Source: Candidatus Moraniibacteriota bacterium
Lineage (GTDB): Bacteria; Patescibacteriota; Minisyncoccia; Moranbacterales; GCA-2747515
Length of the DNA: 64,000 bases
Reading direction: 5' to 3'
Assembly (NCBI GenBank): GCA_046116545.1
Contig: CP175956.1
Coordinates: forward strand, 769,734-833,733
Shown here: one piece after another, positions 11,275 through 24,764 of the stretch
How the letters are laid out: the number at the start of each line of letters is the position of its first letter
Position numbering within the stretch: position 1 is the stretch's first letter
Program-made: the position numbers and the translations under genes
The notes under the pieces: generated by a model
Told to the model about the DNA's origin: nothing
The model's database searches: none
What the model saw: the letters and a program-made list of their open reading frames with translations, nothing else

Positions 11275-13842
11275 TTAACATCTCTTTTTCAATTCAGATA
11301 ATTTATTTAAAGCCTCAATCGGTGTCATCTGATCTATAGATAAATCTTTCAACTCTTTTTCAATTTTACTACTTTGAGTTTTTGGTTTCTTTTCAAACTC
11401 ATCGTTAAATACTTTTTTCTCCAAATTATCCAAAATCTCTACTGCTCTATTGTTTACCAAATCTGGCACACCCGCTAATTTTGCTACTGCTATTGCATAA
11501 CTGTGTGAAGCTTTGCCAGGTCGCACCTTGTGAAGAAAAACTGGTTCACCATCATCTTTTTCCATTACTACCACTTCATAATTTTTGATTCGCTTGGGAA
11601 ACTTCTCTTCTAAAGTTTGTAACTCGTGATAATGTGTCGCAAACAAAGTTTTGGCATTTTTATTTTTGGTTGTAACTAAAAACTCAGCAATCGCCCACGC
11701 AATACTAATACCATCATAAGTACTAGTACCCCGACCAATCTCATCCATGATAATCAAACTTTTGTCAGTTGCATGATGCAAGATATGTGCTGTCTCAGTC
11801 ATCTCAACCATAAAAGTAGAAAGTCCAGAAGCAATGAAATCAGCTGCACCACTACGCACAAAAATTCTGTCTACCATACTAATCGTAGCCTCACTAGCAG
11901 GCACAAAACTTCCGACATGAGCTAGTAGTGTGATAACTGCAACTTGTCTCATGTATACAGACTTACCAGCCATATTTGGTCCAGTCAAAACCAAAAGCTG
12001 ATGATCCCCTGCATTCAACTTTGTATCGTTAGCGATAAACTGATCTGTACTATATTTTTCTACTACTGGATGACGCCCCTCCACTATATGTAATTCATCA
12101 TCACTACTCATAGTAGGACAAATATAGTTTTCCTGTTCAGCAAGCTCAGCAAAAGATCCCAAACAATCAACTGTCGACAAATCATGAGCCAAAGACTGAA
12201 CAAATTTTGTATACTTCAAAATTTCATCAACCAAATTCAAAAATAGATCATATTCTATTTTATTAATTCTCTCCTGGGCAACCAATACTTTTTGTTCGTA
12301 TTCTTTTAAATCAGGTGTGATATAACGCTCAGCACTTACCATTGTTTGCTTGCGAATATAATTAATCGGAACTAAATGCACATTAGCCTTGGTAACTTCG
12401 ATATAATAACCAAAAACTCTATTGTATCTTACTTTCAGAGAAGAAATACCCGTTTTCTCACGTTCTTGCTCTTCCATTTTGACAATCCAGTCCTTATTAC
12501 CAGTAACATTTTCTCGTAAATCGTCCAATTTGCCATGAAAACCAGTTTTTATCATACCACCCGATTTTATATCAAGCGGAGGATCATCTACAATTTGCTC
12601 ATTTATCAAACTAATAATTTTGTCTATTTGTTCACTAGCTGAAAATTGAAGTGCTGTTGCCTCAAACTGTTCAAGGTCACTTAGTACTGCTCGAGCATGT
12701 TCCAATGCCTCAGCTAAATTCTTGAGATCATATGCATTACCATTACCCATTGATAATCTAGCAATCAATCGCGGAATATCACAAATCTGCTTTAACTTCT
12801 CTCGAATTTCATTCCTCTGCGCCCTATTTGTGATCATTTCTCCAACAGCTTCATGACGCTCTTTGATTTTCTCAATATCAATAAGTGGTTTTTTCAAATA
12901 CTCGCGCAAAAGACGTCCACCCATAGCAGTCACGGTCTTATCAATCACCTCAACCAAAGTCCCTTTATCATCCCTAGTACGAAGAGTATCAAAAATCTCC
13001 AAATTTTGAATAGTAGAACGATCCAAAACTAAATATTCCTCAGGCCGATAATAATTCAAACTTTTCAAATGTGCTATTTTATCTTTTTGCGTCTCACGCA
13101 AATACCCAAGCAAACAAGCAATGGCCTCTACACAAGCTTCTTTATTATGCAGAGAAAAAACCTCCAGACTCGCAATCTTAAATTGCTCTTTCACTATTTC
13201 ATTTTTATCAACTGCATATTCATCCCACTCCACAAATGGATAAATATTCATCTCTGTCTCTACACAAATAGTTTTCAATACTTGAGGATTGTTATAATCC
13301 TTTTTATTCAAAATACACTCAGTCGCACCAAAACGAAGTAACTCCGTATTCAAAAGATGTACATTTTCCAAACTAGCATTCAAATCAGTCACAAACATAT
13401 CCCCTGTAGACAAGTCCACCGCTGCAATAGCAATTTTATTCTCTCGAAAAACTAAACTTATAATAAAATTATGTTTCTTTTTATCTAAATTTTTCTCATC
13501 CAAAATTGTTCCCGGAGTAATCACCCGCACAACTTCCCGATCAACAATCCCCTTACCTGTTGGCTCAGACATTTGCTCACAAATTGCCACCTTGTGTCCA
13601 GATTTCACCAACTTAGCAATATAAGCATCAGCTGCATGATGTGGCACTCCAGCCATAGGGATCTCTCCATCTTTACCCCGTGGTCTTTTGGTAAGGGTAA
13701 TCTCCAAAGCAGCCGCCCCAACCTTAGCATCCTCCAAAAACAATTCATAAAAGTCACCCAAACGAAAAAAGAGCAAACAATCCTGATATTGCTCCTTTAT
13801 CTCACTATACTGCTGCATCATCGGCGTATTAAACTTCTGCAT
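11275..13842 (-). CDS. mutS: DNA mismatch repair protein MutS
   Basis: 855 aa with Walker A GPNMAGKSVYMRQ and a MutS domain I N-terminus (MMQQY...RLGDFYELF). Confidence 0.92.
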   Translation of the reverse strand: MQKFNTPMMQQYSEIKEQYQDCLLFFRLGDFYELFLEDAKVGAAALEITLTKRPRGKDGEIPMAGVPHHAADAYIAKLVKSGHKVAICEQMSEPTGKGIVDREVVRVITPGTILDEKNLDKKKHNFIISLVFRENKIAIAAVDLSTGDMFVTDLNASLENVHLLNTELLRFGATECILNKKDYNNPQVLKTICVETEMNIYPFVEWDEYAVDKNEIVKEQFKIASLEVFSLHNKEACVEAIACLLGYLRETQKDKIAHLKSLNYYRPEEYLVLDRSTIQNLEIFDTLRTRDDKGTLVEVIDKTVTAMGGRLLREYLKKPLIDIEKIKERHEAVGEMITNRAQRNEIREKLKQICDIPRLIARLSMGNGNAYDLKNLAEALEHARAVLSDLEQFEATALQFSASEQIDKIISLINEQIVDDPPLDIKSGGMIKTGFHGKLDDLRENVTGNKDWIVKMEEQEREKTGISSLKVRYNRVFGYYIEVTKANVHLVPINYIRKQTMVSAERYITPDLKEYEQKVLVAQERINKIEYDLFLNLVDEILKYTKFVQSLAHDLSTVDCLGSFAELAEQENYICPTMSSDDELHIVEGRHPVVEKYSTDQFIANDTKLNAGDHQLLVLTGPNMAGKSVYMRQVAVITLLAHVGSFVPASEATISMVDRIFVRSGAADFIASGLSTFMVEMTETAHILHHATDKSLIIMDEIGRGTSTYDGISIAWAIAEFLVTTKNKNAKTLFATHYHELQTLEEKFPKRIKNYEVVVMEKDDGEPVFLHKVRPGKASHSYAIAVAKLAGVPDLVNNRAVEILDNLEKKVFNDEFEKKPKTQSSKIEKELKDLSIDQMTPIEALNKLSELKKRC

Positions 13843-13890: not shown

Positions 13891-13965
13891 GTCATTCCCG
13901 TGAAGATGGGAATCTAGTTCTTTTTTGTTATCTTCTTTTTGAGTTATCCGGAAATTCCGGATAAC
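13891..13965. repeat. two adjacent small palindromes: GTCATTCCC-gtgaagat-GGGAATC and GTTATCCGGAA/TTCCGGATAAC
   Basis: Seen at 13891-13914 and 13943-13965. The first shares the GTCATTCC head with the REP-like family. They lie at the boundary between mutS and the R-M island. Confidence 0.5.
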
Positions 13966-14027
13966 TGAAATTTTTTCAATTCTTTTGAACTTGTAAGAAA
14001 TTCTTACAAATTACCTTTTCGTCCAAT

Positions 14028-16826
14028 TTACCACTCAAAAGTTTCTACAAAATTCTGTAGTGATACTTTTATACGTGTGATGATGCTTTCTGATTCCATG
14101 AGTGTTGGTTGCTCTGGTAATAATGCTACTATGTCATCACTAAGTGGCATTCTTTGTGTATACAAGTATTCATTGATAAGATTCTTCATCTTATCTGTAT
14201 CAATATTCTCTTCTTTTGCTATAGACTCTACATATTTCTTTTCCTCCTCTTGCCAATACTTTTCAAATTCTTTTTCTACATCATCAGCACTATCAATTTC
14301 AGGCAAATTATCTTGCATAAACTTCTCTATCAATTCTTTTTTCTTGTGTAATGCAATATCTGTATCAAATACACGCAAAATATCTGCAATTTTCTTTTCT
14401 CTTACAGCATCAGAAGTTACATCTTTAAGTGCAACGATAAGTCTCACAATATAATCAAAGTTAATTCTATCCCTACGAGTTAGTTCCAACTCAAAATCAA
14501 TTTCATCAATGATAGATACTTTATCTTTTCCTTCTTGCTGAGTTCTTATCTTATACATGTCTATATAAGCACTTTGATAATCATAGAATTCCTGTTCATC
14601 TAAATTTAAATCATCAAAAGTAAAATCTGTAAATGTCTCCAAAGATGATTTAATACGCAACAAGTTACGAAACTGTTTAATAAATGCCACTTGATCTTCT
14701 TCACTTTGCAGATTTCCCACACTCCCAGCATCTACTGCGATACTTCTGAGTAATTCTACATTTTCATTAAATTCTTGTTTTTGTTTTTCGTATGGCTTTT
14801 TAAATACTATTTCCTTAGCATTTTCATCTCCAAACAGTGCTAATGCTTTATCTGTATTTTCTTTGAGATTGCGAAAACAAACAATATTACCATGTGGCTT
14901 ATCTGAACCCAATATTCTATTTGTCCGTGAATAAGCTTGCACCAATCCATGATATTGCAAATTCTTATCTACAAAAAGCGTATTAAGTCGCACACTATCA
15001 AATCCTGTGAGAAACATATTCACCACCAAAAGTAAATCAATCTCTCCATCTTTTAACTTCCTTTGTACATCTTTGTGATAATCATAAAACTTATCTGTTG
15101 AAAAGTTTGTATCATAGAGCGTATTATAATCTCCAATACAATTTTCCAGAAAATCACGAGAGTGTTCATTGACTATATCACCACTGTCAACATATACATC
15201 ATGATCCAACAAATCATTTGTCTCATCCTCATTAGCGCGATATGTAAATATTGTTGCAATTTTTAGATTCTTGCTACTTTCTTTGTTTTTCTCTTGCAAA
15301 ATTGTATAATACTTGCGTGCTACTTCTGTATTTCCTACTGCAAAGATTGCATTGAACTTTCCATTCTTTGTCTTGGTATTATAATTTGCTAGTACGTAGT
15401 CAGAAATCTTACTCAATCTATCCTCATGCTCCAATACTTCCCTTGTATCAATATCCTCTACTTTGATATCAGCATCCACTACATCATCTTCTTTATATTT
15501 ATATCGTCCTACATACTCTACTGAAAACCCCAACACATTATTATCAGAAATTGCATTGGTAATAATGTATTTATGCAAACACTCATCAAATACATCTCTA
15601 GTTGTTACACCTCCTACATTATTTTGGGCAAATATTGGCGTACCTGTAAATCCAAACAACTGTGCTTTACCAAAACATGATTTGATAGCCTTGTGCGTTT
15701 TGCCAAACTGACTACGGTGACACTCATCAAATATGATTACAACTTTCTCATCACGTAATTCTTCTATTTGACTGACATAGCTCTCTCTAGCAATAATACG
15801 ATCTAGTTTTTGAATTGTTGTTACAATCAACTTTCTTTTTGGATCTTTTAATTGTTTTAACAAATTGCGTGTATTGTTCGTGCCGTCTACACTACCATCT
15901 GAAAAAGAATTAAATTCTCGTGTTGTTTGGATATCTAGGTCTTTCCTATCCACCACAAAAAGAACTTTTTTAATTTCTGGCATTTGTCCCAGCAATTGAC
16001 TCACTTTAAAAGATGTTAAGGTCTTACCTGACCCAGTTGTATGCCAAATGTAACCACCTTTTTCAGATTCATCTACACGCTTCATGATGTTGCGTACTGC
16101 ATAATACTGATACGGTCGCAAAATCATCGGGATCTTTGGCACTTCTGCCAGTACAATATACTCTGCAATCATTTGTGACACATTACACTTTTCCAAAAAT
16201 ACTTCTGCAAAATCTTCCAATTTACTGATCTTATGATTATTCTCATCAGTCCAAAAAAATGTTTGTTCAAATGGTTGTTTATGATTATTAGAAAAATACT
16301 TTGTATTTACACCATTGGAAATAACAAAAATCTGCACATATTCAAATAAACTCCCAGCAAAAGAATGTTTGTGATATCTTTGAATTTGATTAAATGCTTC
16401 TTTGAGCTCTACACCACGTTTCTTAAGTTCGATTTGCACAAGTGGCAGACCGTTTATAAGAAGAGTCACATCATAACGATTTTCATATTTCCCCACCTGC
16501 GTAATCTGATTTGTAACTTGATACTCATTTTTGCACCAGTGTGTCATGTTGAAAAACCGTACAGACAGAGAAGTCTCATCGTCTCTACTCAAACTAAACC
16601 GATCACGCAGCTTCTTTGCTTTTTCAAAAGTATTTCCCTTGTTGAGATGATTCATAATCCGCTCAAACTCCCTATCGGTAAAAGTAGTTTCATTAAACTT
16701 TTCCAGTTGCGTTTTGAGGTTTGCCTCAAGTTCATCCGTGCCTTTAATAGTAACAGGAGCAAATCCCAAATCACCAAGCTGTGCAATAAATTGATTTTCT
16801 AATTGTTGTTCTGTTTGATGTGTCAT
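14028..16826 (-). CDS. hsdR: Type I restriction enzyme R subunit
   Basis: 932 aa with an N-terminal nuclease-type region, the helicase motif I TGSGKT, and DEAD-like FDECHRSQ. Confidence 0.85.
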   Translation of the reverse strand: MTHQTEQQLENQFIAQLGDLGFAPVTIKGTDELEANLKTQLEKFNETTFTDREFERIMNHLNKGNTFEKAKKLRDRFSLSRDDETSLSVRFFNMTHWCKNEYQVTNQITQVGKYENRYDVTLLINGLPLVQIELKKRGVELKEAFNQIQRYHKHSFAGSLFEYVQIFVISNGVNTKYFSNNHKQPFEQTFFWTDENNHKISKLEDFAEVFLEKCNVSQMIAEYIVLAEVPKIPMILRPYQYYAVRNIMKRVDESEKGGYIWHTTGSGKTLTSFKVSQLLGQMPEIKKVLFVVDRKDLDIQTTREFNSFSDGSVDGTNNTRNLLKQLKDPKRKLIVTTIQKLDRIIARESYVSQIEELRDEKVVIIFDECHRSQFGKTHKAIKSCFGKAQLFGFTGTPIFAQNNVGGVTTRDVFDECLHKYIITNAISDNNVLGFSVEYVGRYKYKEDDVVDADIKVEDIDTREVLEHEDRLSKISDYVLANYNTKTKNGKFNAIFAVGNTEVARKYYTILQEKNKESSKNLKIATIFTYRANEDETNDLLDHDVYVDSGDIVNEHSRDFLENCIGDYNTLYDTNFSTDKFYDYHKDVQRKLKDGEIDLLLVVNMFLTGFDSVRLNTLFVDKNLQYHGLVQAYSRTNRILGSDKPHGNIVCFRNLKENTDKALALFGDENAKEIVFKKPYEKQKQEFNENVELLRSIAVDAGSVGNLQSEEDQVAFIKQFRNLLRIKSSLETFTDFTFDDLNLDEQEFYDYQSAYIDMYKIRTQQEGKDKVSIIDEIDFELELTRRDRINFDYIVRLIVALKDVTSDAVREKKIADILRVFDTDIALHKKKELIEKFMQDNLPEIDSADDVEKEFEKYWQEEEKKYVESIAKEENIDTDKMKNLINEYLYTQRMPLSDDIVALLPEQPTLMESESIITRIKVSLQNFVETFEW

Positions 16827-16838
16827 ATTGTTTTTTGA

Positions 16839-17789
16839 TTATTTCGTCTTACTAATATTTATTGAGTTACTATCATCAAGACTACCAATAAATGAAAATT
16901 TAATATTTAAAATTTCTGATATTTCATTAAATTCAGATAATATTTGATATATTCCATCTCCAAACTGATATTCTTCACTTTCTTTCACAATAAAATTGTC
17001 TCCAAAAATATCCACAGCCTCTTCTTGATCTATAACAAAACCATGATCTTTATATCCATAAACCAATCTAGTTGCTATATTTACTGGCTGTATTTTTAGT
17101 ATATTACTTTTTTTCATTAGCAACCTACTTGCGTATTGCACAGTAGACTCAGCTATTCTTTCATAATGACCGATTGAAATTGGTTTGACTGTCAAAGCAA
17201 GATATCGCGCAAACATTTCTGCAGAATCTTTATTTAAGGATACTAATTCCGCAATATGCTCAATTGAATTTTTCAATCCTAATGCTGGCACGCCCTTTAC
17301 TTGTGGATCTATCGGTCCTAATTCACTAAGTTTCCCCATATGAACTTTATCAGCAGCACAAGCTAATAATGTCGCTGCAGATTTTGCATATCTAGGGATA
17401 ACAACAATAAAATCATTCTCAGAGGAAAACTGCTGAAATAGCTTCCCTATCAAATATGCTGGACTAGGATAACCACCATTTGATGTTAATACCAAAATTA
17501 TTGGCTTATCCTTATCGATCCTTTCAAGGGTTTTATAAATTTTATCCGAATGCAGTGTGGATAAAGAATCATTATCATACAAAACAACAATATTATACTT
17601 TTTATATATTCTATCTCCTCCCATGCTTTGTTGAATATACGTCGTCAAATTATTAATAAATTTTTGTTTATTTATATTACTATCATCATCATGATAATCC
17701 AAAATTGACTTAAATATATCACCCGCCTCAACGGAAACTGATTTCGCAGATGCTTTCTTTGTGCCTTTCTTCGCTGTTTTTTTTGTCAT
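16839..17789 (-). CDS. SDH-family ClpP/crotonase-fold serine protease
   Basis: ILVLTSNGGYPSPAYLIGKLF and AKSAATLLACAADKVHMGKLSELGPIDPQ resemble the PF01972 (SDH_sah) pattern. It has a Lys-rich N-terminus. It sits inside the Type I R-M locus. Confidence 0.5.
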   Translation of the reverse strand: MTKKTAKKGTKKASAKSVSVEAGDIFKSILDYHDDDSNINKQKFINNLTTYIQQSMGGDRIYKKYNIVVLYDNDSLSTLHSDKIYKTLERIDKDKPIILVLTSNGGYPSPAYLIGKLFQQFSSENDFIVVIPRYAKSAATLLACAADKVHMGKLSELGPIDPQVKGVPALGLKNSIEHIAELVSLNKDSAEMFARYLALTVKPISIGHYERIAESTVQYASRLLMKKSNILKIQPVNIATRLVYGYKDHGFVIDQEEAVDIFGDNFIVKESEEYQFGDGIYQILSEFNEISEILNIKFSFIGSLDDSNSINISKTK

Positions 17790-17841
17790 ACCCTAACCAT
17801 AAATTAAACTGATTATACATTAAATCTCTAGAATTAAAACA

Positions 17842-18798
17842 CTAAAATTCACTATCAACCTCCATTGCCATATTCCTCAATTCTGCAAAAGAATTATCTA
17901 ATGATTCTACATAAATATCAAGATTGAATGAATCAACATTTTCATCCATTGATACCATCTTTTCTATTCTTTTTAATAACTCATCTACCTTTTTAACTTC
18001 TTCAACAATACCTGGAATACTAATTCTATGTTCACCTAGTTGTTCAATATTATATCGCATTCTAATACCATCTTTAAATTCTTCATATATTGAAATCAAC
18101 ATTTTAAAACAAGTTTTTGAATGTATTCTTTCACACTCAAAAGACCATAATTTTTGTATTAAATAACCAGATTGCGCAAGCTTACTTACTAAACTGTCAT
18201 TATTAAACTTTTTTTTATGCTTATTTTCAATTTCATTTATCCTTTTTATAATCCTATCAATTTCTGAACTCAATACATTAGATTGTTTATCAATTATTTC
18301 TATAATATTTACCTTTTTATTAACAAAATCATTATGCGACCATACTTGATATTCTAGAATATTTGTATTCTCAACTGTGCTTAACGATGTATATGTAATA
18401 TCTCCATCTCCATAGGAAATATCTTTACCTCTTTTTTTCTTTGTTTCAGACGGATGTCCAACTGTTTCATTTCTTATATTTCGTATTTCTTTTAATTCTG
18501 AAAAGTCTTCAAATTTTGGCACTTCAATATCAACAGATTCTTCTAGATGCACCATTGAATCCTGTTGTACAATTAGTGCCTGTAATATTCCATATATAGA
18601 TAATTTTGTAGGATGCTTTTGTTCTATATATTCTTCTATTGCTGACTGAGTATCTTGAATATTATCAAAAGCAGACCATAATTTATTCCAGTTGCCTTTA
18701 TCTTTCTTATTCCAAGCTCCCTGCTTACAACAAAAAGATGTATGAATAATCTTTTTTAATTCATCAATTTTTACTCTTAAATTATAATTAGAATCCAT
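17842..18798 (-). CDS. hypothetical protein embedded in the R-M locus
   Basis: 318 aa with no recognisable motif, lying between hsdS and hsdR. Confidence 0.4.
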   Translation of the reverse strand: MDSNYNLRVKIDELKKIIHTSFCCKQGAWNKKDKGNWNKLWSAFDNIQDTQSAIEEYIEQKHPTKLSIYGILQALIVQQDSMVHLEESVDIEVPKFEDFSELKEIRNIRNETVGHPSETKKKRGKDISYGDGDITYTSLSTVENTNILEYQVWSHNDFVNKKVNIIEIIDKQSNVLSSEIDRIIKRINEIENKHKKKFNNDSLVSKLAQSGYLIQKLWSFECERIHSKTCFKMLISIYEEFKDGIRMRYNIEQLGEHRISIPGIVEEVKKVDELLKRIEKMVSMDENVDSFNLDIYVESLDNSFAELRNMAMEVDSEF

Positions 18799-18871
18799 AA
18801 CATTTTTTTAAACAAACAACCTTTGCGTCAATCCTTTTTTCACCTCTTTACTTTGCTGATTTGATTTTGTT

Positions 18872-19057
18872 TTAACCCTTCTTCATCCCTTTTTCTAATT
18901 CTTGTATTAACCTACTATCTGGTGTATCTCCTAATTTAGGCTCATCAACATCAATATTAATGGGTTCCGTCTGTTCAATGTTATTTTCATTATTATCTCC
19001 ATCACTAATACCCTCTATTTGGCCATTATTAGAAACTTCTTTATTATCGGTACTCAT
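18872..19057 (-). CDS. small acidic hypothetical protein
   Basis: 61 aa, Asp/Glu/Asn-rich. Confidence 0.25.
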   Translation of the reverse strand: MSTDNKEVSNNGQIEGISDGDNNENNIEQTEPINIDVDEPKLGDTPDSRLIQELEKGMKKG

Positions 19058-19080
19058 ATAAAATATTGTTTATTAATAAA

Positions 19081-19608
19081 TTAATTTACACAAACTCTAA
19101 AAGTTGGGAAAAGTATAAAAATTATAATGCTCACATAAACAAGTAACATAATGCTAAATGCTATATTCATCCTAATTGCAATCTCTTCAAGCTTACTTCT
19201 ATTAAACTCCTCTGATTCTTTATAAGAATTAACTATTTCAATCTGTATACTTTTTATCATTTTACCTTCATCATACAATGCAATTAATCCGCTAACTGCA
19301 GGAGAGTCATGCTCTTTTCTTTTCCATAACCAAGCCAATATTGTAAATAAAATTATCAAAGCAAATTCCAAAATTAGTAATATCACTTGCTGTTCATTAT
19401 TTTTATTTAAAATATCAACCTGATACAAACCAGCGACTCCAGCAAATGTAAATCCAGTTGCAAGAAATAATAGTTCCGCCTTTTTTGATTGTCCTTGAAT
19501 TTCTTGTCTTCTATTATTATGCTTCTCTCTTGCTATTTCTAGTAAAAGATTTAACTTTTCTTTTTCATCTGTTGTACTTTCTGTAGTCATATTTTCATCA
19601 TTAAACAA
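19081..19608 (-). CDS. hypothetical membrane protein (2-3 predicted TM helices)
   Basis: Hydrophobic stretches LLFLATGFTFAGVAGLY, ILLILEFALIILFTILAWLW and IMLLVYVSIIIFILF. Its stop overlaps the hsdS start. Confidence 0.4.
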   Translation of the reverse strand: MFNDENMTTESTTDEKEKLNLLLEIAREKHNNRRQEIQGQSKKAELLFLATGFTFAGVAGLYQVDILNKNNEQQVILLILEFALIILFTILAWLWKRKEHDSPAVSGLIALYDEGKMIKSIQIEIVNSYKESEEFNRSKLEEIAIRMNIAFSIMLLVYVSIIIFILFPTFRVCVN

Positions 19609-20884
19609 ATAACTTCTGCATCAAGCCTTTTTTCCATTCCTTTACTCCTGTGATTTGATCTTGTTTTAATTGTATCACTTCATCAATAGAACTCAAGAAG
19701 TCTGCAATTTTTTGTTGCTCTAAAAATGATGGAAGATTTATTTTTAAAGTTTTCATATCGGAACCATAGACATGATAAACAGTAACACCAGAAACTAGTC
19801 TCATAATTTTTTTCTTATTAATATTAACCCAATACGCAAAAAAATTATTCAATACATCTTTGCCTCTAATAATAAGAATATCTCCGCCTAAAATAATATC
19901 TTTTTTACTCAAAGCGCTTGCTGTAGCTAAGCCATTTGGAGTTACATCGGATGTCGGCATTAAAATATCATTTTTTTCGCTTAAAAACATTTTTTCTTTC
20001 TCTAAATCAGTTTTTGAAATTATATTTGTTATAACCTCATTATATTTAATGAATAACTCACCATAATGAATACAAGCATTTTCACCATTGCTAATAATAT
20101 CATTTTTTGAAAGTCCCTTACCCTTCATAAAATTTGTAACATCTCCCAACCTCTTTTCCTCCCAATCAGCAAAAGCATTTCTATTCTCATCACGGAAGCG
20201 AATGTTTTGTGAGAAAATTTTTTGCATTATGCCTTTTTTGTATTTTTCCAATTCTTCTTTTTGTTTTTCCAAATTCGTAAGCCACTCATCCGCCTCACCC
20301 AAAAACCCCGCGATTTTTTGCTGCTCTGGAAGTATAGGCATTTTAATGGGCATTTTCATAAAATCAGACTGAATAATATTCATCCTGTCATGTCGCGCTC
20401 CATAATTGGCAATTCTGTACATGTGTCTATGCCATTTTTTAGTTTCAAAATATTTTTCTAAAAAAGACAAATCTCCTTGTTCTGGTTTTAAAACAGTATA
20501 CAACGGAGACATTACACCTTGTTTTAAATTATTTCTCTTTAATGGACCTACTGGAGCATACTTTGAAATTCGTGGATTATACACAAAATCATCAATATCA
20601 ACAATATAATAATTTGTTAAATTATTTTTATTTGCTATGTCTTTATCAAAGTAATCTCTTTGGCTGACAATGCCTTTTATTGCTGAATTAGTAAGAACAA
20701 AATCATATTCATCATTTAAATTTTTATTTGCATTCTTTTCAAAAACATCTTCCAACTCTTCCGCCTCCCAATCACCACTAAAACCACCAAACCGCAAAGT
20801 TGGCACATTTTTTTGTGCTTTTTTCTTTTTATTCCCCGCCAATGCCTGACAAGGTGTTTTTTTAATTTCTTTTGTCTGTGTCAT
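19601..20884 (-). CDS. hsdS: Type I R-M specificity subunit
   Basis: LRFGGFSGDWE and the central conserved ILPEQQKIAGFL repeat motif, with two target-recognition-domain-like halves. The track ORF begins at 20917, but MTQTK at 20884 is the likelier start. Confidence 0.7.
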   Translation of the reverse strand: MTQTKEIKKTPCQALAGNKKKKAQKNVPTLRFGGFSGDWEAEELEDVFEKNANKNLNDEYDFVLTNSAIKGIVSQRDYFDKDIANKNNLTNYYIVDIDDFVYNPRISKYAPVGPLKRNNLKQGVMSPLYTVLKPEQGDLSFLEKYFETKKWHRHMYRIANYGARHDRMNIIQSDFMKMPIKMPILPEQQKIAGFLGEADEWLTNLEKQKEELEKYKKGIMQKIFSQNIRFRDENRNAFADWEEKRLGDVTNFMKGKGLSKNDIISNGENACIHYGELFIKYNEVITNIISKTDLEKEKMFLSEKNDILMPTSDVTPNGLATASALSKKDIILGGDILIIRGKDVLNNFFAYWVNINKKKIMRLVSGVTVYHVYGSDMKTLKINLPSFLEQQKIADFLSSIDEVIQLKQDQITGVKEWKKGLMQKLFV

Positions 20885-20885
20885 A

Positions 20886-21362
20886 TTATTTTTTCTTTTT
20901 TTCACGAATATATTCATTTATAATTACAATTACATATATTGATGTTGCAATCCAAAATCCAAACTTCTCAACAGTATAAATATATATCAAAACTAATACA
21001 CAAATAATTATAAGGAGAACATACAAACCAGTTATAATTCTAATTATCCTTGATGGAGTAGATTTTTGGAAAAAGTATTTGAAAAATCGCTTCCAAAATG
21101 CAATATTTACATTTAAATTATTTTTATAGTCATAAATAAAAAAACCAAGAAAACCCCAAATAGCAATTATCATAGCAACCCAACTATACACTTGTCTGTG
21201 ATCAATCGTCCCCCAACTTTCATTGCCTGTGACAAAAACATCATAATAAGCATTTGCAAATAAAGTTAAAAGCAAACCCAAAAAAGACCCAATCACAATA
21301 CCCCATACAGCATATATTCGATCTTTTTTTTCTTTTTCTTGATTTTGAACTTCTTTTGTCAT
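20886..21362 (-). CDS. hypothetical 4-TM membrane protein between hsdM and hsdS
   Basis: 158 aa with four hydrophobic helices, overlapping gene junctions on both sides. Confidence 0.4.
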   Translation of the reverse strand: MTKEVQNQEKEKKDRIYAVWGIVIGSFLGLLLTLFANAYYDVFVTGNESWGTIDHRQVYSWVAMIIAIWGFLGFFIYDYKNNLNVNIAFWKRFFKYFFQKSTPSRIIRIITGLYVLLIIICVLVLIYIYTVEKFGFWIATSIYVIVIINEYIREKKKK

Positions 21363-21364
21363 AT

Positions 21365-22957
21365 TTAAAATGGTTTATTAATTTCTAATTCATCACAAAA
21401 CTCTGCAATATTTTCTTGCATTTTCTTTTCATCTTTTTGTAATTTTTGTAATTCTCTAGATACTACATCAATATCAATTTGCTCTTCTTCCTCAAATGTA
21501 TCTACATATCTAGGGATATTTAGATTGAAATCGTTTTCTTTTATTTCCTCTAGAGTTGCACAATGCGAATATTTTTCAATTTCTTTTCTGCCTGTATAAG
21601 TTTCAAAAATCTTTTGTAAGTTTTCATCTGTGAGATTATTTTGATTTTTACCTTTTTCAAATTCTTTTGACGCATCTATGAAAAAAATATTATCATCAGT
21701 ATGACGACATTTTTTAAATACCAAAACCGTAGCAGGAATAGAAGTTCCATAAAAAAGATTTGAAGGTAACCCTATAACCGCATCGAGTGAGTTTTGTTTT
21801 TCTATGATGTACTGGCGAATTTTACCCTCAGCTCCACCACGGAAAAGCACACCATGAGGTAATACCACAGCCATTGTGCCATTATCTGCTAAGTGATACA
21901 GCATATGTGTCACAAAACCAAAGTCAGCTTTGTTTTTTGGTGCTAATGCACCATACTGTGTAAATCGTTCATCTTCTGCAAGTACTGGATCATCAGAACC
22001 TTTCCACTTTGCGGAGAAAGGTGGATTAGCCACAAGCGCCTCAGCCTGCAAGTCTTCAAATAAGTCTGTTGTAAGTGTATCACCCTGCTTGATATCAAAA
22101 TTTGCATAATGCACATCATGCAAAAGCATATTCATCCTTGCAAGGTTGTATGTCGTACGATTAAGCTCTTGTCCGTAATAATTATCAACTTTAGTAAAAT
22201 CTTTAACACGAAGAAGTAATGAACCAGATCCACAAGTAGGATCATAGACAGCTTTAATACGCTTTTTATCCTGAGTTACAATCATTGATAAAAGTTGAGA
22301 AACTTGTGCAGGAGTATAAAACTCTCCACCCTTTTTACCAGCACCAGCAGCAAACTTCCCAATTAGATATTCATACGCATCTCCCAACACATCACTCTTT
22401 GCGTCTTTAAGTTGAAAATCAATTTCATCAAGGTGTGAAAGAATATCTGTAATAATTTCATTTTTATCTTTTTCAGTTCGTCCTAGTTTTGCAGAAGTAA
22501 GGTCAACATCTTCAAATAATCCGATAAAGTCATCTTCACTGTCATTTCCCACAGCAGTTTGTTCAATATTATTTAGCACACTCTTGAGATCTTCCAATAT
22601 AAAAGAATCTTCTCCCTCAATCTCTCCACGTCCTTTTTTGACAAGATGTTCAAAGAGTTCAATAGGCTCAAGAAAGAATCCTAAAGAATCCAGTGAACGC
22701 CTGCTAATAACTTGCAACATATCATCATTTTTACCACTAATGAGCGAAGAATACTTAACTTTATCAGTCTTCAAGAGATCATCAGCATACGCCTGCTGTT
22801 TTTCACTAAGATACTTATAAAAAATAAATCCCAAGATATAATTTTTATACTCATCAGCATTCATCTTACCCCGCAATAAATCAGCAATATTCCAAAGTTG
22901 TTTCTCTAATTGTCTCTTATGTTCCGCTGTCATAAATATATTTTTTTTAGCAATCAA
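21365..22957 (-). CDS. hsdM: Type I R-M DNA methyltransferase subunit
   Basis: N6-adenine MTase motif IV LVANPPFS and SAM-binding motif VYDPTCGSGSLL. Confidence 0.85.
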   Translation of the reverse strand: MIAKKNIFMTAEHKRQLEKQLWNIADLLRGKMNADEYKNYILGFIFYKYLSEKQQAYADDLLKTDKVKYSSLISGKNDDMLQVISRRSLDSLGFFLEPIELFEHLVKKGRGEIEGEDSFILEDLKSVLNNIEQTAVGNDSEDDFIGLFEDVDLTSAKLGRTEKDKNEIITDILSHLDEIDFQLKDAKSDVLGDAYEYLIGKFAAGAGKKGGEFYTPAQVSQLLSMIVTQDKKRIKAVYDPTCGSGSLLLRVKDFTKVDNYYGQELNRTTYNLARMNMLLHDVHYANFDIKQGDTLTTDLFEDLQAEALVANPPFSAKWKGSDDPVLAEDERFTQYGALAPKNKADFGFVTHMLYHLADNGTMAVVLPHGVLFRGGAEGKIRQYIIEKQNSLDAVIGLPSNLFYGTSIPATVLVFKKCRHTDDNIFFIDASKEFEKGKNQNNLTDENLQKIFETYTGRKEIEKYSHCATLEEIKENDFNLNIPRYVDTFEEEEQIDIDVVSRELQKLQKDEKKMQENIAEFCDELEINKPF

Positions 22958-23070: not shown

Positions 23071-23229
23071 TTATGCATTTTCTTCTTCAATTTTTTCATT
23101 GATTTTTGTTAATTCTTCATGAACTTTTTTTAATACACTATCTAAATGAATTGTACCTCCACCTCTTGCATACTCCTTAGTGATTTCAACAGTCATTTCC
23201 AATATTTTACGCTCACTATGTTTCCTCAT
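23071..23229 (-). CDS. small hypothetical protein (52 aa), translationally coupled to the upstream dinD-like gene
   Basis: By my translation: MRKHSERKILEMTVEITKEYARGGGTIHLDSVLKKVHEELTKINEKIEEENA. Its ATG overlaps the TGA stop of dinD in an ATGA arrangement. It is below the track's size cutoff. Confidence 0.35.
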   Translation of the reverse strand: MRKHSERKILEMTVEITKEYARGGGTIHLDSVLKKVHEELTKINEKIEEENA

Positions 23230-24047
23230 ATCGACTTGTCACCTCCCTCCAGTTTCTTTTTATCACTTCTGTTCTTCAATAATGTCTTTGCTTTTCCTAT
23301 TCCATCGGTTGTAGGAAGCTCTTCTGGCATTGTGCCACCAAGCTCTTCAATTGTTTTACGAACTTTCTGCCCTACATCATAATGTGTAAGATTTGCATTC
23401 ATCTCATTTTTCACATTCTCTCTACGAAGTTTAGCATCTGCTTGTGTTGTGCGAAATAGATTAGCTGCCAATTCCTCACTGCCCATATGATCAAGTATCT
23501 GTTGTGATTTTTTTAACTTTTTATTTGTTTTTATATCTCCAGAATCCAACCCTCCATACAATCCCTTATATCCATAATTCTGAAATTTGCCATAATTTTC
23601 TACACCTGCATCACTTGCCGCCTCTGCGAGTGATGTATTATGTTTTTTAATTTCATCACGTAATTGTACTCTTTTATTATCTTCTATCAGCTCATCAGTT
23701 TTTTCTTGTCGTCGTGTCTGAATTGCAAAATATGTTTGACCAAGTGCCACGACCTCCTTGCTTGGATCTGAATTTTGAATAATAAGATAACAAGCATATC
23801 TAGAAAGATATACGGTATCAACTGAACGCTCAGCACCAGAACCAATCTTGACCATTTCGTCCACATGGGCAAAATGGGTGTGGATAACTTCTCCACTCTT
23901 CTCACATGCTAATTTAGCCTTTTCGATAACATTCAAAAATTTACTATAATTTGAATAATCCAAAGCTTTTGCAAGATCACGAGAAGACCAAAAATCACTC
24001 CCATACTCATTAACTTGCTTAATTTTTTCAAAAATTACTTGTGTCAT
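23226..24047 (-). CDS. dinD: DNA damage-inducible protein D-like (Bro-N/KilA-N + DinD domains)
   Basis: GQTYFAIQTRRQE, ILDHMGSEELAANLFRTTQ and GGTMPEELPT match what I recall of enterobacterial DinD. It is adjacent to lexA. Confidence 0.55.
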   Translation of the reverse strand: MTQVIFEKIKQVNEYGSDFWSSRDLAKALDYSNYSKFLNVIEKAKLACEKSGEVIHTHFAHVDEMVKIGSGAERSVDTVYLSRYACYLIIQNSDPSKEVVALGQTYFAIQTRRQEKTDELIEDNKRVQLRDEIKKHNTSLAEAASDAGVENYGKFQNYGYKGLYGGLDSGDIKTNKKLKKSQQILDHMGSEELAANLFRTTQADAKLRRENVKNEMNANLTHYDVGQKVRKTIEELGGTMPEELPTTDGIGKAKTLLKNRSDKKKLEGGDKSI

Positions 24048-24104
24048 ATTTGATTTGTATTTTAATTATTAAAAATAGAAGAAATGTCCATCTACATCCC
24101 ACAA

Positions 24105-24764
24105 CTATGATTTCAACACATCAATTACCTTACCATTAACAATTAAATCATCCTCTTCGGTTAAATATATTGGTAAAAATTCTTCTTCAGTTGAACAAGG
24201 GAAAAGACCAATTCTATCCTGTTCTACATATCGCAACAGTTTTATTGTAGCAAGCCCATCGATAACAGCTAGTACAGGTATATTATTGTCATTTATAGAA
24301 GGCTTGTAACCACCATCAACTAGAACAAAGCTTCCATCTTCAATATTATTCTCGCGCACTTTATAATTATTCATAGATTCTCCAGATGCCTGAATTGCAA
24401 AAAGGTTTTTAATATTTTTTTGTCCAACAATACTTTTTGAAACTTTCAATGTTCCCTGCCTATATTGCTCAGCTACAATACTTGCAATTCCACAATTTGC
24501 ACTACCATATACAGGAATATCAACAAATAACATCTTCCCCTGGTCAAGTAACTCTAAAGCTTTTGTATGTGAATTTCTCCGCACGACACCAGCATCTTTC
24601 AAATCATTCAAATATTTATGCACAGTTCTTGGGCTATTCATATCATATCCGCTAGACCGCAATTCGTCTCTAAGTTCCCGAATAGATGGCATTACGCCAT
24701 TCTCTCGGAAAAAACTTTTCAGAGAACTGAGAACTATCTCATGTTTTTTGGTAAGATTTTTCAT
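24105..24764 (-). CDS. lexA: LexA repressor (S24 peptidase)
   Basis: N-terminal winged-HTH and a C-terminal S24 domain with the Ser motif (SGESM) and a Lys region (…VNGKV). Confidence 0.8.
   Translation of the reverse strand: MKNLTKKHEIVLSSLKSFFRENGVMPSIRELRDELRSSGYDMNSPRTVHKYLNDLKDAGVVRRNSHTKALELLDQGKMLFVDIPVYGSANCGIASIVAEQYRQGTLKVSKSIVGQKNIKNLFAIQASGESMNNYKVRENNIEDGSFVLVDGGYKPSINDNNIPVLAVIDGLATIKLLRYVEQDRIGLFPCSTEEEFLPIYLTEEDDLIVNGKVIDVLKS

Follow-up and report, generated by a model that had tools for sequence, protein, structure and literature searches.

The window, i.e. the whole 64,000-nucleotide stretch of DNA that was analysed, comes from an uncultured Moraniibacteriota genome and carries an operon of eight minus-strand genes. 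Read in the direction of transcription they are hsdM, a gene for a 158-aa membrane protein, hsdS, genes for a 175-aa membrane protein, a 61-aa acidic protein, a 318-aa protein and an SDH/ClpP-fold protease, and finally hsdR. Pfam and PADLOC matches bear out an earlier note on this DNA in describing a type I R-M operon with embedded non-R-M genes, and the family matches and coordinates of both flanks likewise place it between mutS and a lexA-dinD pair. In window coordinates the features are as follows:

11275-13842, mutS, flank beyond the end of hsdR
13894-13913, 13942-13966 and 13988-14012, three short hairpins in the hsdR-mutS spacer
14028..16826, minus strand, hsdR, restriction/translocase subunit (HSDR_N, SWI2_SNF2, T1R_D3-like, EcoR124_C; PADLOC REase_I 6e-300)
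16839..17789, minus strand, SDH-type ClpP-fold serine protease, 316 aa (PF01972 8.8e-14; NF047768; phrog_11747; R-M-adjacent homologues)
17842..18798, minus strand, 318-aa protein of a large unnamed family (family size, conserved columns, AF2 model, weak PF18734 matches, type I R-M neighbourhoods)
18872..19057, minus strand, 61-aa acidic protein (no family match; 15 D+E against 6 K+R; singleton cluster)
19081..19608, minus strand, 175-aa predicted membrane protein (no family match at threshold; 2-3 hydrophobic segments in a hydropathy scan)
19601..20917, minus strand, hsdS, specificity subunit (PF01420, Methylase_S, 2.5e-28 in two stretches; PADLOC Specificity_I 1e-105)
20886..21362, minus strand, 158-aa predicted membrane protein (no family match at threshold; hydropathy scan; singleton 90% cluster)
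21365..22957, minus strand, hsdM, type I methyltransferase subunit (PF02384, N6_Mtase, 1e-111; HsdM_N 2e-21; PADLOC MTase_I 4e-161)
23226..24047, minus strand, dinD-like Bro-N protein (NF008573 6e-108; PADLOC PDC-S13 9e-109)
24105-24764, lexA-like gene, flank, paired with dinD

Judged from the domains of its hsdR product, which include EcoR124_C, the system is type IC-like. The gene order, co-directionality and tight packing with overlapping junctions that had been claimed are all seen in the coordinates, strands and gaps. The true start of hsdM is probably an internal ATG at residue 9. The 158-aa gene follows hsdM after 2 nt and either overlaps hsdS by 32 nt or abuts it (+1 nt) if an alternative hsdS start is used; HsdS has two target-recognition domains and its profile matches begin near residue 33. 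The 175-aa gene starts at a TTG and shares 8 nt with the end of hsdS, and the remaining junctions are gaps of 23 nt (175-aa/61-aa), 73 nt (61-aa/318-aa), 52 nt (318-aa/protease) and 12 nt (protease/hsdR). Short palindromes had been said to bound the block; hairpins are indeed present, but they mark only one of its ends because all three lie inside the single hsdR-mutS spacer, where they score as terminator-like on the plus strand only and a terminator role is putative. The same locus is found on public Candidatus Moraniibacteriota contigs, on which all five cargo genes are called.

The 318-aa protein has 35 close homologues, and its family numbers 1,633 cluster representatives with a cut-off of E<=1e-3, almost all of about 300-330 aa; it has no at-threshold match in Pfam, NCBIfam, PADLOC or PHROG. 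The commonest neighbours of the family are type I R-M genes: among the 126 genes located at most two positions away in 62 non-redundant loci, Pfam assigns N6_Mtase to nine, Methylase_S to eight, Eco57I and HsdM_N to six each, HSDR_N to four and RhuM to three, and PADLOC MTase_I matches 13. In the close subfamily 11 of 19 clusters lie inside type I operons. Five related type IC operons (L005, L011/L032, L028, L029 and L030), whose hsdM and hsdR are 57-68% and 54-72% identical to those of the window, keep the bare order hsdS-318-hsdR, and another type I clade, which is unrelated to the first (its hsdM is about 25% identical), has the gene after hsdM. The gene also follows hsdM in L015, L017, L021, L022 and L026. 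The nearest relative (79% identity), from another Moraniibacteriota MAG, adjoins DpnI/DpnD and a DUF4238 gene, and about half of the family loci with readable flanks contain no R-M gene (non-R-M contexts include L003, L006 and L094). The operon core common to distant relatives would be hsdM-hsdS-318-hsdR, and the 318-aa gene itself is probably a stand-alone, horizontally mobile accessory gene.

The 318-aa protein is predicted to consist of an N-terminal HEPN-like domain followed by a C-terminal helical domain, which makes it a candidate R-M-embedded RNase. Thirteen positions are near-invariant across 148 representatives (D45, D49, G70, Q73, Q78, Q79, D80, R106, R109, G114, H115, P116 and Q172), including a motif of the form R-N-x3-G-H-P at a helix end (here R106..R109-N-E-T-V-G114-H115-P116), and R-[N/H/D]-x3-G-H is retained in relatives that are only 21-30% identical. 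In the AF2 model (pLDDT 85) R109 closes helix 100-113 and H115 opens the next loop, while Q78-Q79-D80 lie on helix 2 of the predicted domain. The published HEPN signature has an Rx4-6H motif at the same helix-end position, a polar residue after the arginine and an acidic residue on helix 2 (PMC3710099). Across three member-wise scans the Pfam family that recurs most is PF18734 (HEPN_AbiU2; 4/28, 3/36 and 6/148; best E 0.003), and one member matches HEPN-like_int at 7e-4. Every HEPN Pfam match of the family is below the gathering score; the protein of the window reaches 13.9 bits against PF18734, which has a threshold of 26.8, in a match centred on the motif.

These sub-threshold scores are one reason to consider that the 318-aa protein is instead a helical accessory of new fold, such as a type I assembly or regulatory factor, an anti-restriction sensor or another enzyme. 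Foldseek against the PDB, run with the full model and with a model of residues 30-200, returned neither a HEPN structure nor any other significant match, a BFVD structure search with the 318-aa model gave no significant neighbour, sequence searches of the PDB gave nothing meaningful, and hhalign against one Abi_2 protein aligned the motif alone at a probability of 0.16%. Moreover, the HEPN template does not account for the conserved D45, D49, G70, Q73 and Q172. This reading is nevertheless somewhat unlikely, as the HEPN signature is matched by the Rx5H motif with its polar residue behind the R, by the helix-end position and by the acidic residue on helix 2, the only Pfam signal that recurs comes from a HEPN family, and one would not expect a purely structural adaptor in the non-R-M contexts noted above.

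The preferred reading of the 318-aa protein is here set beside known HEPN proteins of R-M loci. R-M operons are reported to contain AbiU2 and many further HEPN families (PMC3710099), and with HEPN_AbiU2 and the Abi-type families (AbiD/F Abi_2, AbiJ) the protein shares this context, the motif placed where a helix ends and the polar residue that follows R; it differs from HEPN_AbiU2 in its sub-threshold score, in a beta-sheet insert (residues 135-164) after the motif and in finding no HEPN structure by Foldseek. In its placement it is reminiscent of PrrC of the EcoprrI type IC operon (prrA-prrB-prrC-prrD), likewise a single accessory gene flanked by hsdS and hsdR in a type IC-like system, and this placement is kept across the divergent operons L005, L011 and L028-L030. 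Both would also have a HEPN-type Rx4-6H catalytic motif, which in the 318-aa protein is a candidate. Unlike PrrC, the 318-aa protein has no ABC-ATPase domain and no PADLOC or Pfam match to PrrC or RloC models, its candidate HEPN-like domain is N-terminal and precedes a helical domain, and its family also occurs outside R-M operons. The logic expected to be common to both is that of a latent RNase which backs up restriction (PMC3710099, PMC12707154). The N-terminal domain may be a divergent HEPN-type, metal-independent RNase using R109 and H115. The protein would serve as a second line of defence, its activity blocked by the R-M complex or else by the helical domain at its own C-terminus. The trigger we infer is a phage that disables restriction, whereupon the protein would cut tRNA, rRNA or mRNA.

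The protease scores above the gathering cut-off of PF01972 (51.6 against 31.3 bits) and matches phrog_11747 at 2e-29. It shares with SDH-type ClpP-fold proteinases (PF01972/NF047768) the Clp-fold core, the conserved Ser, the Gly-Gly loop and the Asp and His columns. Its score is far below the NF047768 equivalog cut-off (61 against 250 bits), which places it in a divergent subfamily whose members are about 320 aa long and have a C-terminal extension of their own; this extension is conserved and the N-terminal tail is Lys-rich. With invariant S103-x-G-G, K136-S137, H150, D161 and K247-D248-H249, the predicted active-site Ser, Asp and His residues are intact. Type I or type II R-M genes adjoin homologues in five of ten non-viral contexts, which is a small sample. 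L089 holds the protease alone between hsdS and hsdR, and the type II contexts are an MTase with a PD-(D/E)XK-like protein of 174 aa (L090-92), a C protein, MTase and RE_CfrBI followed by the protease after a 4-nt gap (L096-98), and L118, where an MTase lies between the protease and RE_TaqI. Other homologues occur in prophage accessory regions, one is the largest gene of a 4.15-kb ColE1-type Klebsiella plasmid, and in 16 IMG/VR loci the neighbours include integrases, RelA_SpoT, Mrr_cat, and P2 GpU/GpD with an HSDR_N-S1 protein.

The protease is probably a second, independent cassette and a later arrival in the operon, acting either as a proteolytic abortive-infection effector or on the restriction subunit. 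The latter would make it a dedicated restriction controller and not a defence effector, degrading HsdR or a type II REase so that the cell is spared self-restriction when its DNA is damaged or when the system enters a new host, as host ClpXP does for EcoKI. Its gene directly adjoins a nuclease gene in four of the five R-M contexts (here it ends 12 nt before hsdR, and in L096 it starts 4 nt after RE_CfrBI), the association covers type I and type II systems as would fit a nuclease-wide role, and a proteolytic tie to type I restriction is known, since ClpXP-dependent degradation of HsdR is established for types IA and IB (PMC12707154). Against this, one homologue in two lacks an R-M neighbour and some sit in prophage slots or alone on a small plasmid, where a nuclease to be controlled is missing; restriction alleviation in type IC systems is reported to proceed without proteolysis (PMC12707154); and no partner ATPase or unfoldase gene is seen nearby. 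An exclusive role as controller is thus unlikely. In contrast to the host housekeeping protease, the protease here is encoded inside R-M operons.

The three small ORFs have no at-threshold match in Pfam, PADLOC, NCBIfam or PHROG and no tblastn relatives among 115 other loci. They are best read as lineage-specific orphans, a status that refers to these local comparisons, and would be lineage-specific additions to the operon. The 158-aa product had been described as a four-TM protein; a membrane protein is indeed predicted, with three to four segments in the hydropathy scan.

Taken together, the locus is best explained, with a probability of about 0.6, as a type IC-like R-M operon with two independent embedded cassettes, a putative RNase and a protease, and three lineage-specific orphans. 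The earlier note had proposed a single protease, membrane protein and unknown module for which the R-M operon is a landing site. Co-directionality, tight packing, overlapping junctions and the lack of a terminator-like minus-strand site from hsdM to hsdR are in its favour, as is the lower G+C of four of the five cargo genes (0.27-0.31; the 61-aa gene is at 0.32) relative to hsdM and hsdR (0.33-0.34). Synteny, on which the cargo set was to be compared, argues otherwise: the 62 non-redundant loci of the 318-aa family all lack both the protease and the small ORFs, the 318-aa gene is absent from each of about 25 protease loci, related type IC operons hold the 318-aa gene alone (the other four cargo genes are missing from L011, L028, L029, L030, L015, L017, L021, L022 and L026), and its nearest homologue lies in the DpnI context. 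One co-functional five-gene anti-phage module is thereby largely refuted and very improbable. What stands is the candidacy of individual cargo genes, as the 318-aa gene and the protease recur separately beside R-M in many unrelated microbes; each is probably a back-up defence gene or a control gene in its own right. That the cargo are ordinary housekeeping or envelope genes which chanced into the operon is hardly credible: the membrane proteins and the acidic peptide lack informative matches and nothing positively links them to defence, but all five look unlike metabolic or housekeeping genes, the small ORFs form singletons instead of being conserved, and neither larger family is kept in a fixed housekeeping context, with neighbours that vary between loci and among which R-M, Abi_2, Mrr, RhuM, integrases and transposases prevail.

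For defence or control roles, including any anti-phage effect and the substrate of the protease, we infer from guilt by embedding. Non-R-M genes nested in a type I operon are what the locus has in common with the guilt-by-embedding set (Payne et al. 2024, bioRxiv 10.1101/2024.01.29.577857; TgvAB of Vibrio VPI-2, PMC11411939). The 318-aa family and the protease subfamily differ from that set in that a PADLOC run (v2.0.0), as the earlier note had suggested, matched neither to any model, the PDC (phage-defence-candidate) models of that library included, and the part of the supplementary data of Payne et al. (2024) that was covered has no SDH_protease or PF01972 entry. The locus also resembles the set in its dinD-like gene, which lies directly upstream of the operon, matches the PDC family PDC-S13 and may be part of the same island.

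Eight co-directional genes occupy the region 14028-22957 on the minus strand of the window. Three of these, hsdM (N6_Mtase at 1e-111 and HsdM_N in Pfam), hsdS (Methylase_S with two domains) and hsdR (HSDR_N, SWI2_SNF2, T1R_D3-like and EcoR124_C in Pfam, REase_I at 6e-300 in PADLOC), are all present, intact and co-oriented, and each is matched by both Pfam and PADLOC. The presence of EcoR124_C and the other domains on HsdR, along with the Pfam and PADLOC assignments, leads to the classification of the R-M system as type IC-like. The other five genes, which lie between these three and are all included in the public gene calls of the source Candidatus Moraniibacteriota genome, are as follows.

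20886-21362, minus strand: 158-aa membrane protein
19081-19608, minus strand: 175-aa membrane protein
18872-19057, minus strand: 61-aa acidic protein
17842-18798, minus strand: 318-aa protein
16839-17789, minus strand: 316-aa SDH-type ClpP-fold serine protease (PF01972 at 51.6 bits, above the gathering score of 31.3)

Read from hsdM to hsdR, the junctions measure +2, -32 (or +1 with an alternative hsdS start), -8, +23, +73, +52 and +12 nt, and the block is flanked by mutS (NF003810, 2e-300) and by a dinD-like gene with a LexA-like S24 protein. The Pfam and PADLOC matches and the ORF coordinates thus bear out the gene order, packing and flanks that the earlier note had described for a type I R-M locus with five embedded genes. 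The G+C content is 0.27-0.31 in four of the five cargo genes and 0.32 in the 61-aa gene, and is higher (0.33-0.34) in hsdM and hsdR. The short palindromes said to bound the block are real hairpins (13894-13913 and 13942-13966), with a third at 13988-14012, but all three are confined to the single 185-nt spacer between hsdR and mutS. These near-perfect hairpins (13894-14012) are terminator-like on the plus strand only, where no gene converges. Between hsdM and hsdR the minus strand showed no terminator-like site, and since promoter-like sites are not in excess (76 versus 71.7 in shuffled sequence) no internal promoters are proposed.

When the five cargo proteins were compared with the PADLOC v2.0.0 models at E<=0.01 none was matched, and the only match was to the flanking dinD-like gene. 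This Bro-N gene lies directly upstream of hsdM and matches the phage-defence candidate PDC-S13 (9e-109). Because it also has a LexA-like neighbour, the defence island may begin at the dinD/LexA-like pair (23226-24764) rather than at hsdM. A further match of the dinD-like protein is to the N-terminal portion of a type I specificity model, and the LexA-like HTH-S24 protein which precedes it scores below the lexA equivalog cut-off (74 versus 111 bits). A 52-aa ORF (23071-23229), a publicly called gene that forms a singleton cluster, has a 4-nt overlap with the dinD stop and is separated from hsdM, downstream of it, by 113 nt.

The earlier note had proposed that the protease, membrane protein and unknown among the cargo look like an anti-phage module, and had asked whether the cargo set travels with hsdS-hsdR in relatives. 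This was addressed in 80 metagenomic and two genomic loci of the 318-aa family, plus several contexts obtained by exact look-up, in which ORFs were called and then searched with the proteins of the window; the loci fall into 63 clusters, 62 and that of the window itself. Neither the protease nor any of the three small ORFs occurs in any of the 62 non-redundant loci, and the 318-aa gene is likewise missing from the roughly 25 protease-family loci. For the small ORFs, tblastn gave no match in 115 other loci (880 kb in total), and each is a singleton in 90%-identity clusters. The closest homologue of the 318-aa protein, which is 79% identical and encoded in another Moraniibacteriota MAG, is located between DpnI/DpnD and a DUF4238 gene and not in a type I operon. 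The lack of co-occurrence, the singleton status of the small ORFs and the DpnI context of this closest relative show that the five genes are a stack of separate acquisitions. The reading as one five-gene module is therefore rejected on synteny, while the embedding in R-M loci that the same proposal invoked stands for two of the families.

Of the three small proteins, the two longer ones (158 and 175 aa) are hydrophobic and the shortest (61 aa) is acidic. All three are publicly called and translationally packed, show no family link in Pfam, PADLOC, NCBIfam or PHROG, and are treated here, on sequence grounds, as lineage-specific orphans with no arguable defence role. A 174-aa gene that precedes the protease in comparison locus L090 is PD-(D/E)XK-like and no relative of the 175-aa membrane protein. 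Likewise, a 112-aa membrane protein in the hsdM-hsdS slot of L089 (4457-4795) has no significant similarity to the 158-aa protein (E 2.5). The type I operons of L089 and of the window, both from CPR bacteria, each have a small multi-pass membrane protein in the hsdM-hsdS slot, which may be a coincidence or may reflect a recurring slot for a membrane anchor.

The 318-aa protein belongs to a large family: a profile run against 1.84 billion cluster representatives matched 1,633 of them at E<=1e-3 and, of these, 983 at E<=1e-10. Nearly all are 300-330 aa long with full-length alignments. No model in Pfam, NCBIfam, PADLOC or PHROG matches the 318-aa protein at threshold, the source names are all 'hypothetical protein' or absent, and the longer members P0202, P0209 and P0266 carry no informative extra domains. 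A scan of 126 genes no more than two positions away from the family gene, taken from the 62 non-redundant loci, is led in Pfam by N6_Mtase (9), Methylase_S (8), Eco57I (6), HsdM_N (6), HSDR_N (4) and RhuM (3), and in PADLOC by the models for the type I methyltransferase (13) and for specificity subunits (8). Of the 19 clusters that make up the close subfamily (identity of 38% or more), 11 are found within type I operons. The order hsdS-318-hsdR is found in the operons related to that of the window (L005, L011/L032, L028, L029 and L030, with hsdM 57-68% and hsdR 54-72% identical), and in L011, L028, L029 and L030 the 318-aa gene is the sole occupant of the slot. In an unrelated type I lineage (L015, L017, L021, L022 and L026, with hsdM about 25% identical) the gene follows hsdM. 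An Mrr_cat gene overlaps the family gene in L006, a Marinobacter plasmid region encoding a member has SIR2 and transposases nearby, and IMG/VR viral contigs yielded no member of the family. In L005 (9104-11944) hsdR is separated from the 318-aa homologue by a gene for a 946-aa protein that weakly matches SMC_N/AAA_21 (ABC-type ATPase) and might represent either a partner ATPase or a second embedded system.

Defence functions are known to be nested in type I R-M operons, as in the case of PrrC and the Campylobacter rlo genes. The 318-aa gene of the window and its counterparts in L005, L011/L032 and L028-L030 share the prrC-like position between hsdS and hsdR, the slot which prrC itself occupies in the type IC EcoprrI operon (PMC3710099, PMC12707154). 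TgvAB is also nested in a type I R-M operon and has a defence function (PMC11411939), and 'guilt by embedding' has yielded 145 phage-defence candidates (bioRxiv 10.1101/2024.01.29.577857). PrrC and RloC join an N-terminal ABC-type ATPase to a C-terminal HEPN nuclease. For the 318-aa protein, Pfam, NCBIfam and PADLOC give neither an ATPase nor a PrrC/RloC match, and the model shows helices and a single small sheet but no P-loop domain. Membership of the PrrC/RloC group is thus rejected because the ATPase domain is absent.

The most likely function of the 318-aa protein, at slightly better than even odds, is that of a HEPN-type RNase. In 148 representatives that are 21-47% identical to it, the residues D45, D49, G70, Q73, Q78, Q79, D80, R106, R109, G114, H115, P116 and Q172 are near-invariant, and the family motif reads I-R-x-I-R-N-x-x-[IV]-G-H-P. 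This includes an Rx4-6H motif, R109-N-E-T-V-G-H115 in the window protein. A set of 36 diverse members shows no variation at R109, G114, H115 and P116, all of which reach at least 90% conservation in the 148, and almost every relative checked has N, H or D directly after R109. The AlphaFold (AF2) model (pLDDT 85, pTM 0.76) comprises helices 37-59, 65-88 and 100-113, a three-stranded sheet (135-164), a long helix (165-196) and a C-terminal helical domain; helix 100-113 ends at the motif with H115 in a loop, and D80 of Q78-Q79-D80 lies within helix 65-88. In HEPN proteins the motif occupies this same position, the R is as a rule followed by N, D or H, and helix 2 contributes an acidic residue to complete the site (PMC3710099). 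The modelled placement of the motif, the residue after R and the acidic residue in helix 2 all fit this published signature. HEPN_AbiU2 (PF18734) is the top recurrent family in member-wise Pfam scans (4/28, 3/36 and 6/148, giving 13 matches from overlapping member sets; best E 0.003), all below threshold, as is its match to residues 90-129 of the window protein, which span the motif. One member matches HEPN-like_int (PF18867) at 7e-4, also below threshold. A new fold or another role is a live rival to the HEPN reading. Foldseek searches of PDB and BFVD with full and domain models gave no significant neighbour, no four-helix up-down fold similar to solved HEPN structures was recognised for the 318-aa protein, and hhalign against a single Abi_2 protein aligned the motif only, with a probability of 0.16%.

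Homologues of the SDH protease, which carry a PF01972 annotation, number more than 1,430, are about 320 aa long and in many cases come from CPR phyla and Bacteroidota. The score of the protease against the NCBIfam equivalog NF047768 (61.4 bits) is far under the cut-off of 250, so it is a divergent subfamily, in which a distinctive C-terminal part is conserved. Profiles of the protease and 318-aa families retrieved nothing useful from PDB sequences, PADLOC v2.0.0 matches neither family, and no literature was found on either or, of relevance, on PF01972/SDH proteases in defence. Invariant in 26 protease sequences are S103-x-G105-G106, K136-S137, H150, D161 and D248-H249, in the contexts S103-x-G-G, P132-x-x-A-K-S137-A-A-T-L-L, H150-M-G, S-E-L-G-P-I-D161 and Y-K-D248-H249. 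The conserved catalytic and oxyanion residues are consistent with an active Clp-fold serine protease, in which the assignment of the catalytic His and Asp is presumptive. R-M systems account for five of the ten independent non-viral contexts.

R-M contexts of the SDH protease
The window: type I
L089: hsdM, 112-aa gene, hsdS, SDH, hsdR
L090-92: MTase, PD-(D/E)XK-like 174-aa gene, SDH; serine recombinase adjoining
L096-98: C protein, MTase, RE_CfrBI, SDH
L118: RE_TaqI, LexA-S24-MTase fusion, SDH

The protease gene abuts a nuclease gene in four of these five, the exception being L118, where the methyltransferase gene lies between SDH and RE_TaqI. In a small sample, this adjacency favours a role as built-in limiter of the nuclease, which the protease may be by analogy with ClpXP, which degrades HsdR of type IA and IB systems (PMC12707154). 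Alternatively the protease may be a proteolytic abortive-infection effector, a reading favoured, again in a small sample, by its solo and prophage copies. The other five contexts are L093, L099 (with an Abi_2 gene near), L101, L122 and the ColE1-type Klebsiella quasipneumoniae plasmid L095 (NZ_CP089444.1, 4150 bp), the largest gene of which encodes a 351-aa SDH homologue (about 41% identity in the tblastn-aligned region). In 16 IMG/VR loci, relatives of the protease neighbour integrases, a RelA_SpoT gene, an Mrr_cat gene or an S24 repressor, or follow P2 GpU/GpD beside an HSDR_N-S1 protein.

The locus is thus not a categorically new system, and holds two families without a name in current defence catalogues and domain libraries, each independently embedded in R-M. 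The evidence for embedding is good; the mechanism, as read from sequence, is plausible but unproven. It is tentatively proposed, with a probability of roughly 0.35, that the 318-aa family is a widespread, undescribed stand-alone RNase (HEPN-like or of a new fold) that co-evolved with type IC operons as an ATPase-less analogue of PrrC, that the SDH subfamily is an R-M-coupled protease (abortive-infection effector or built-in restriction alleviation), and that both are stacked in one operon of a reduced CPR genome. Nested R-M accessory genes are a proven source of immune mechanisms (PrrC, TgvAB and the guilt-by-embedding candidates). The 318-aa family, with over 1,600 sequence clusters and a prrC-like arrangement conserved in one type IC lineage, would, if an RNase, provide a simple ATPase-free model for coupling restriction failure to cell shutdown. 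Should the ClpP-fold protease, found repeatedly beside restriction nuclease genes, prove to degrade nucleases or host targets, it would be the first case of R-M systems encoding a protease of their own. Both families are present in CPR bacteria, in which phage defence has to our knowledge been little studied, and recognising the apparent five-gene system as separate acquisitions spares effort on the wrong construct design.

In L118 (1972-3495) the type II methyltransferase next to the protease homologue, paired with RE_TaqI, forms a fusion with a LexA DNA-binding and an S24 peptidase domain, which together with the LexA-like gene of the window hints at control of these R-M loci by self-cleaving repressors. 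On the viral contig L102 (4596-5687) a RelA_SpoT-domain protein (toxSAS/CapRel-like) is encoded directly upstream of a 50%-identical protease homologue.
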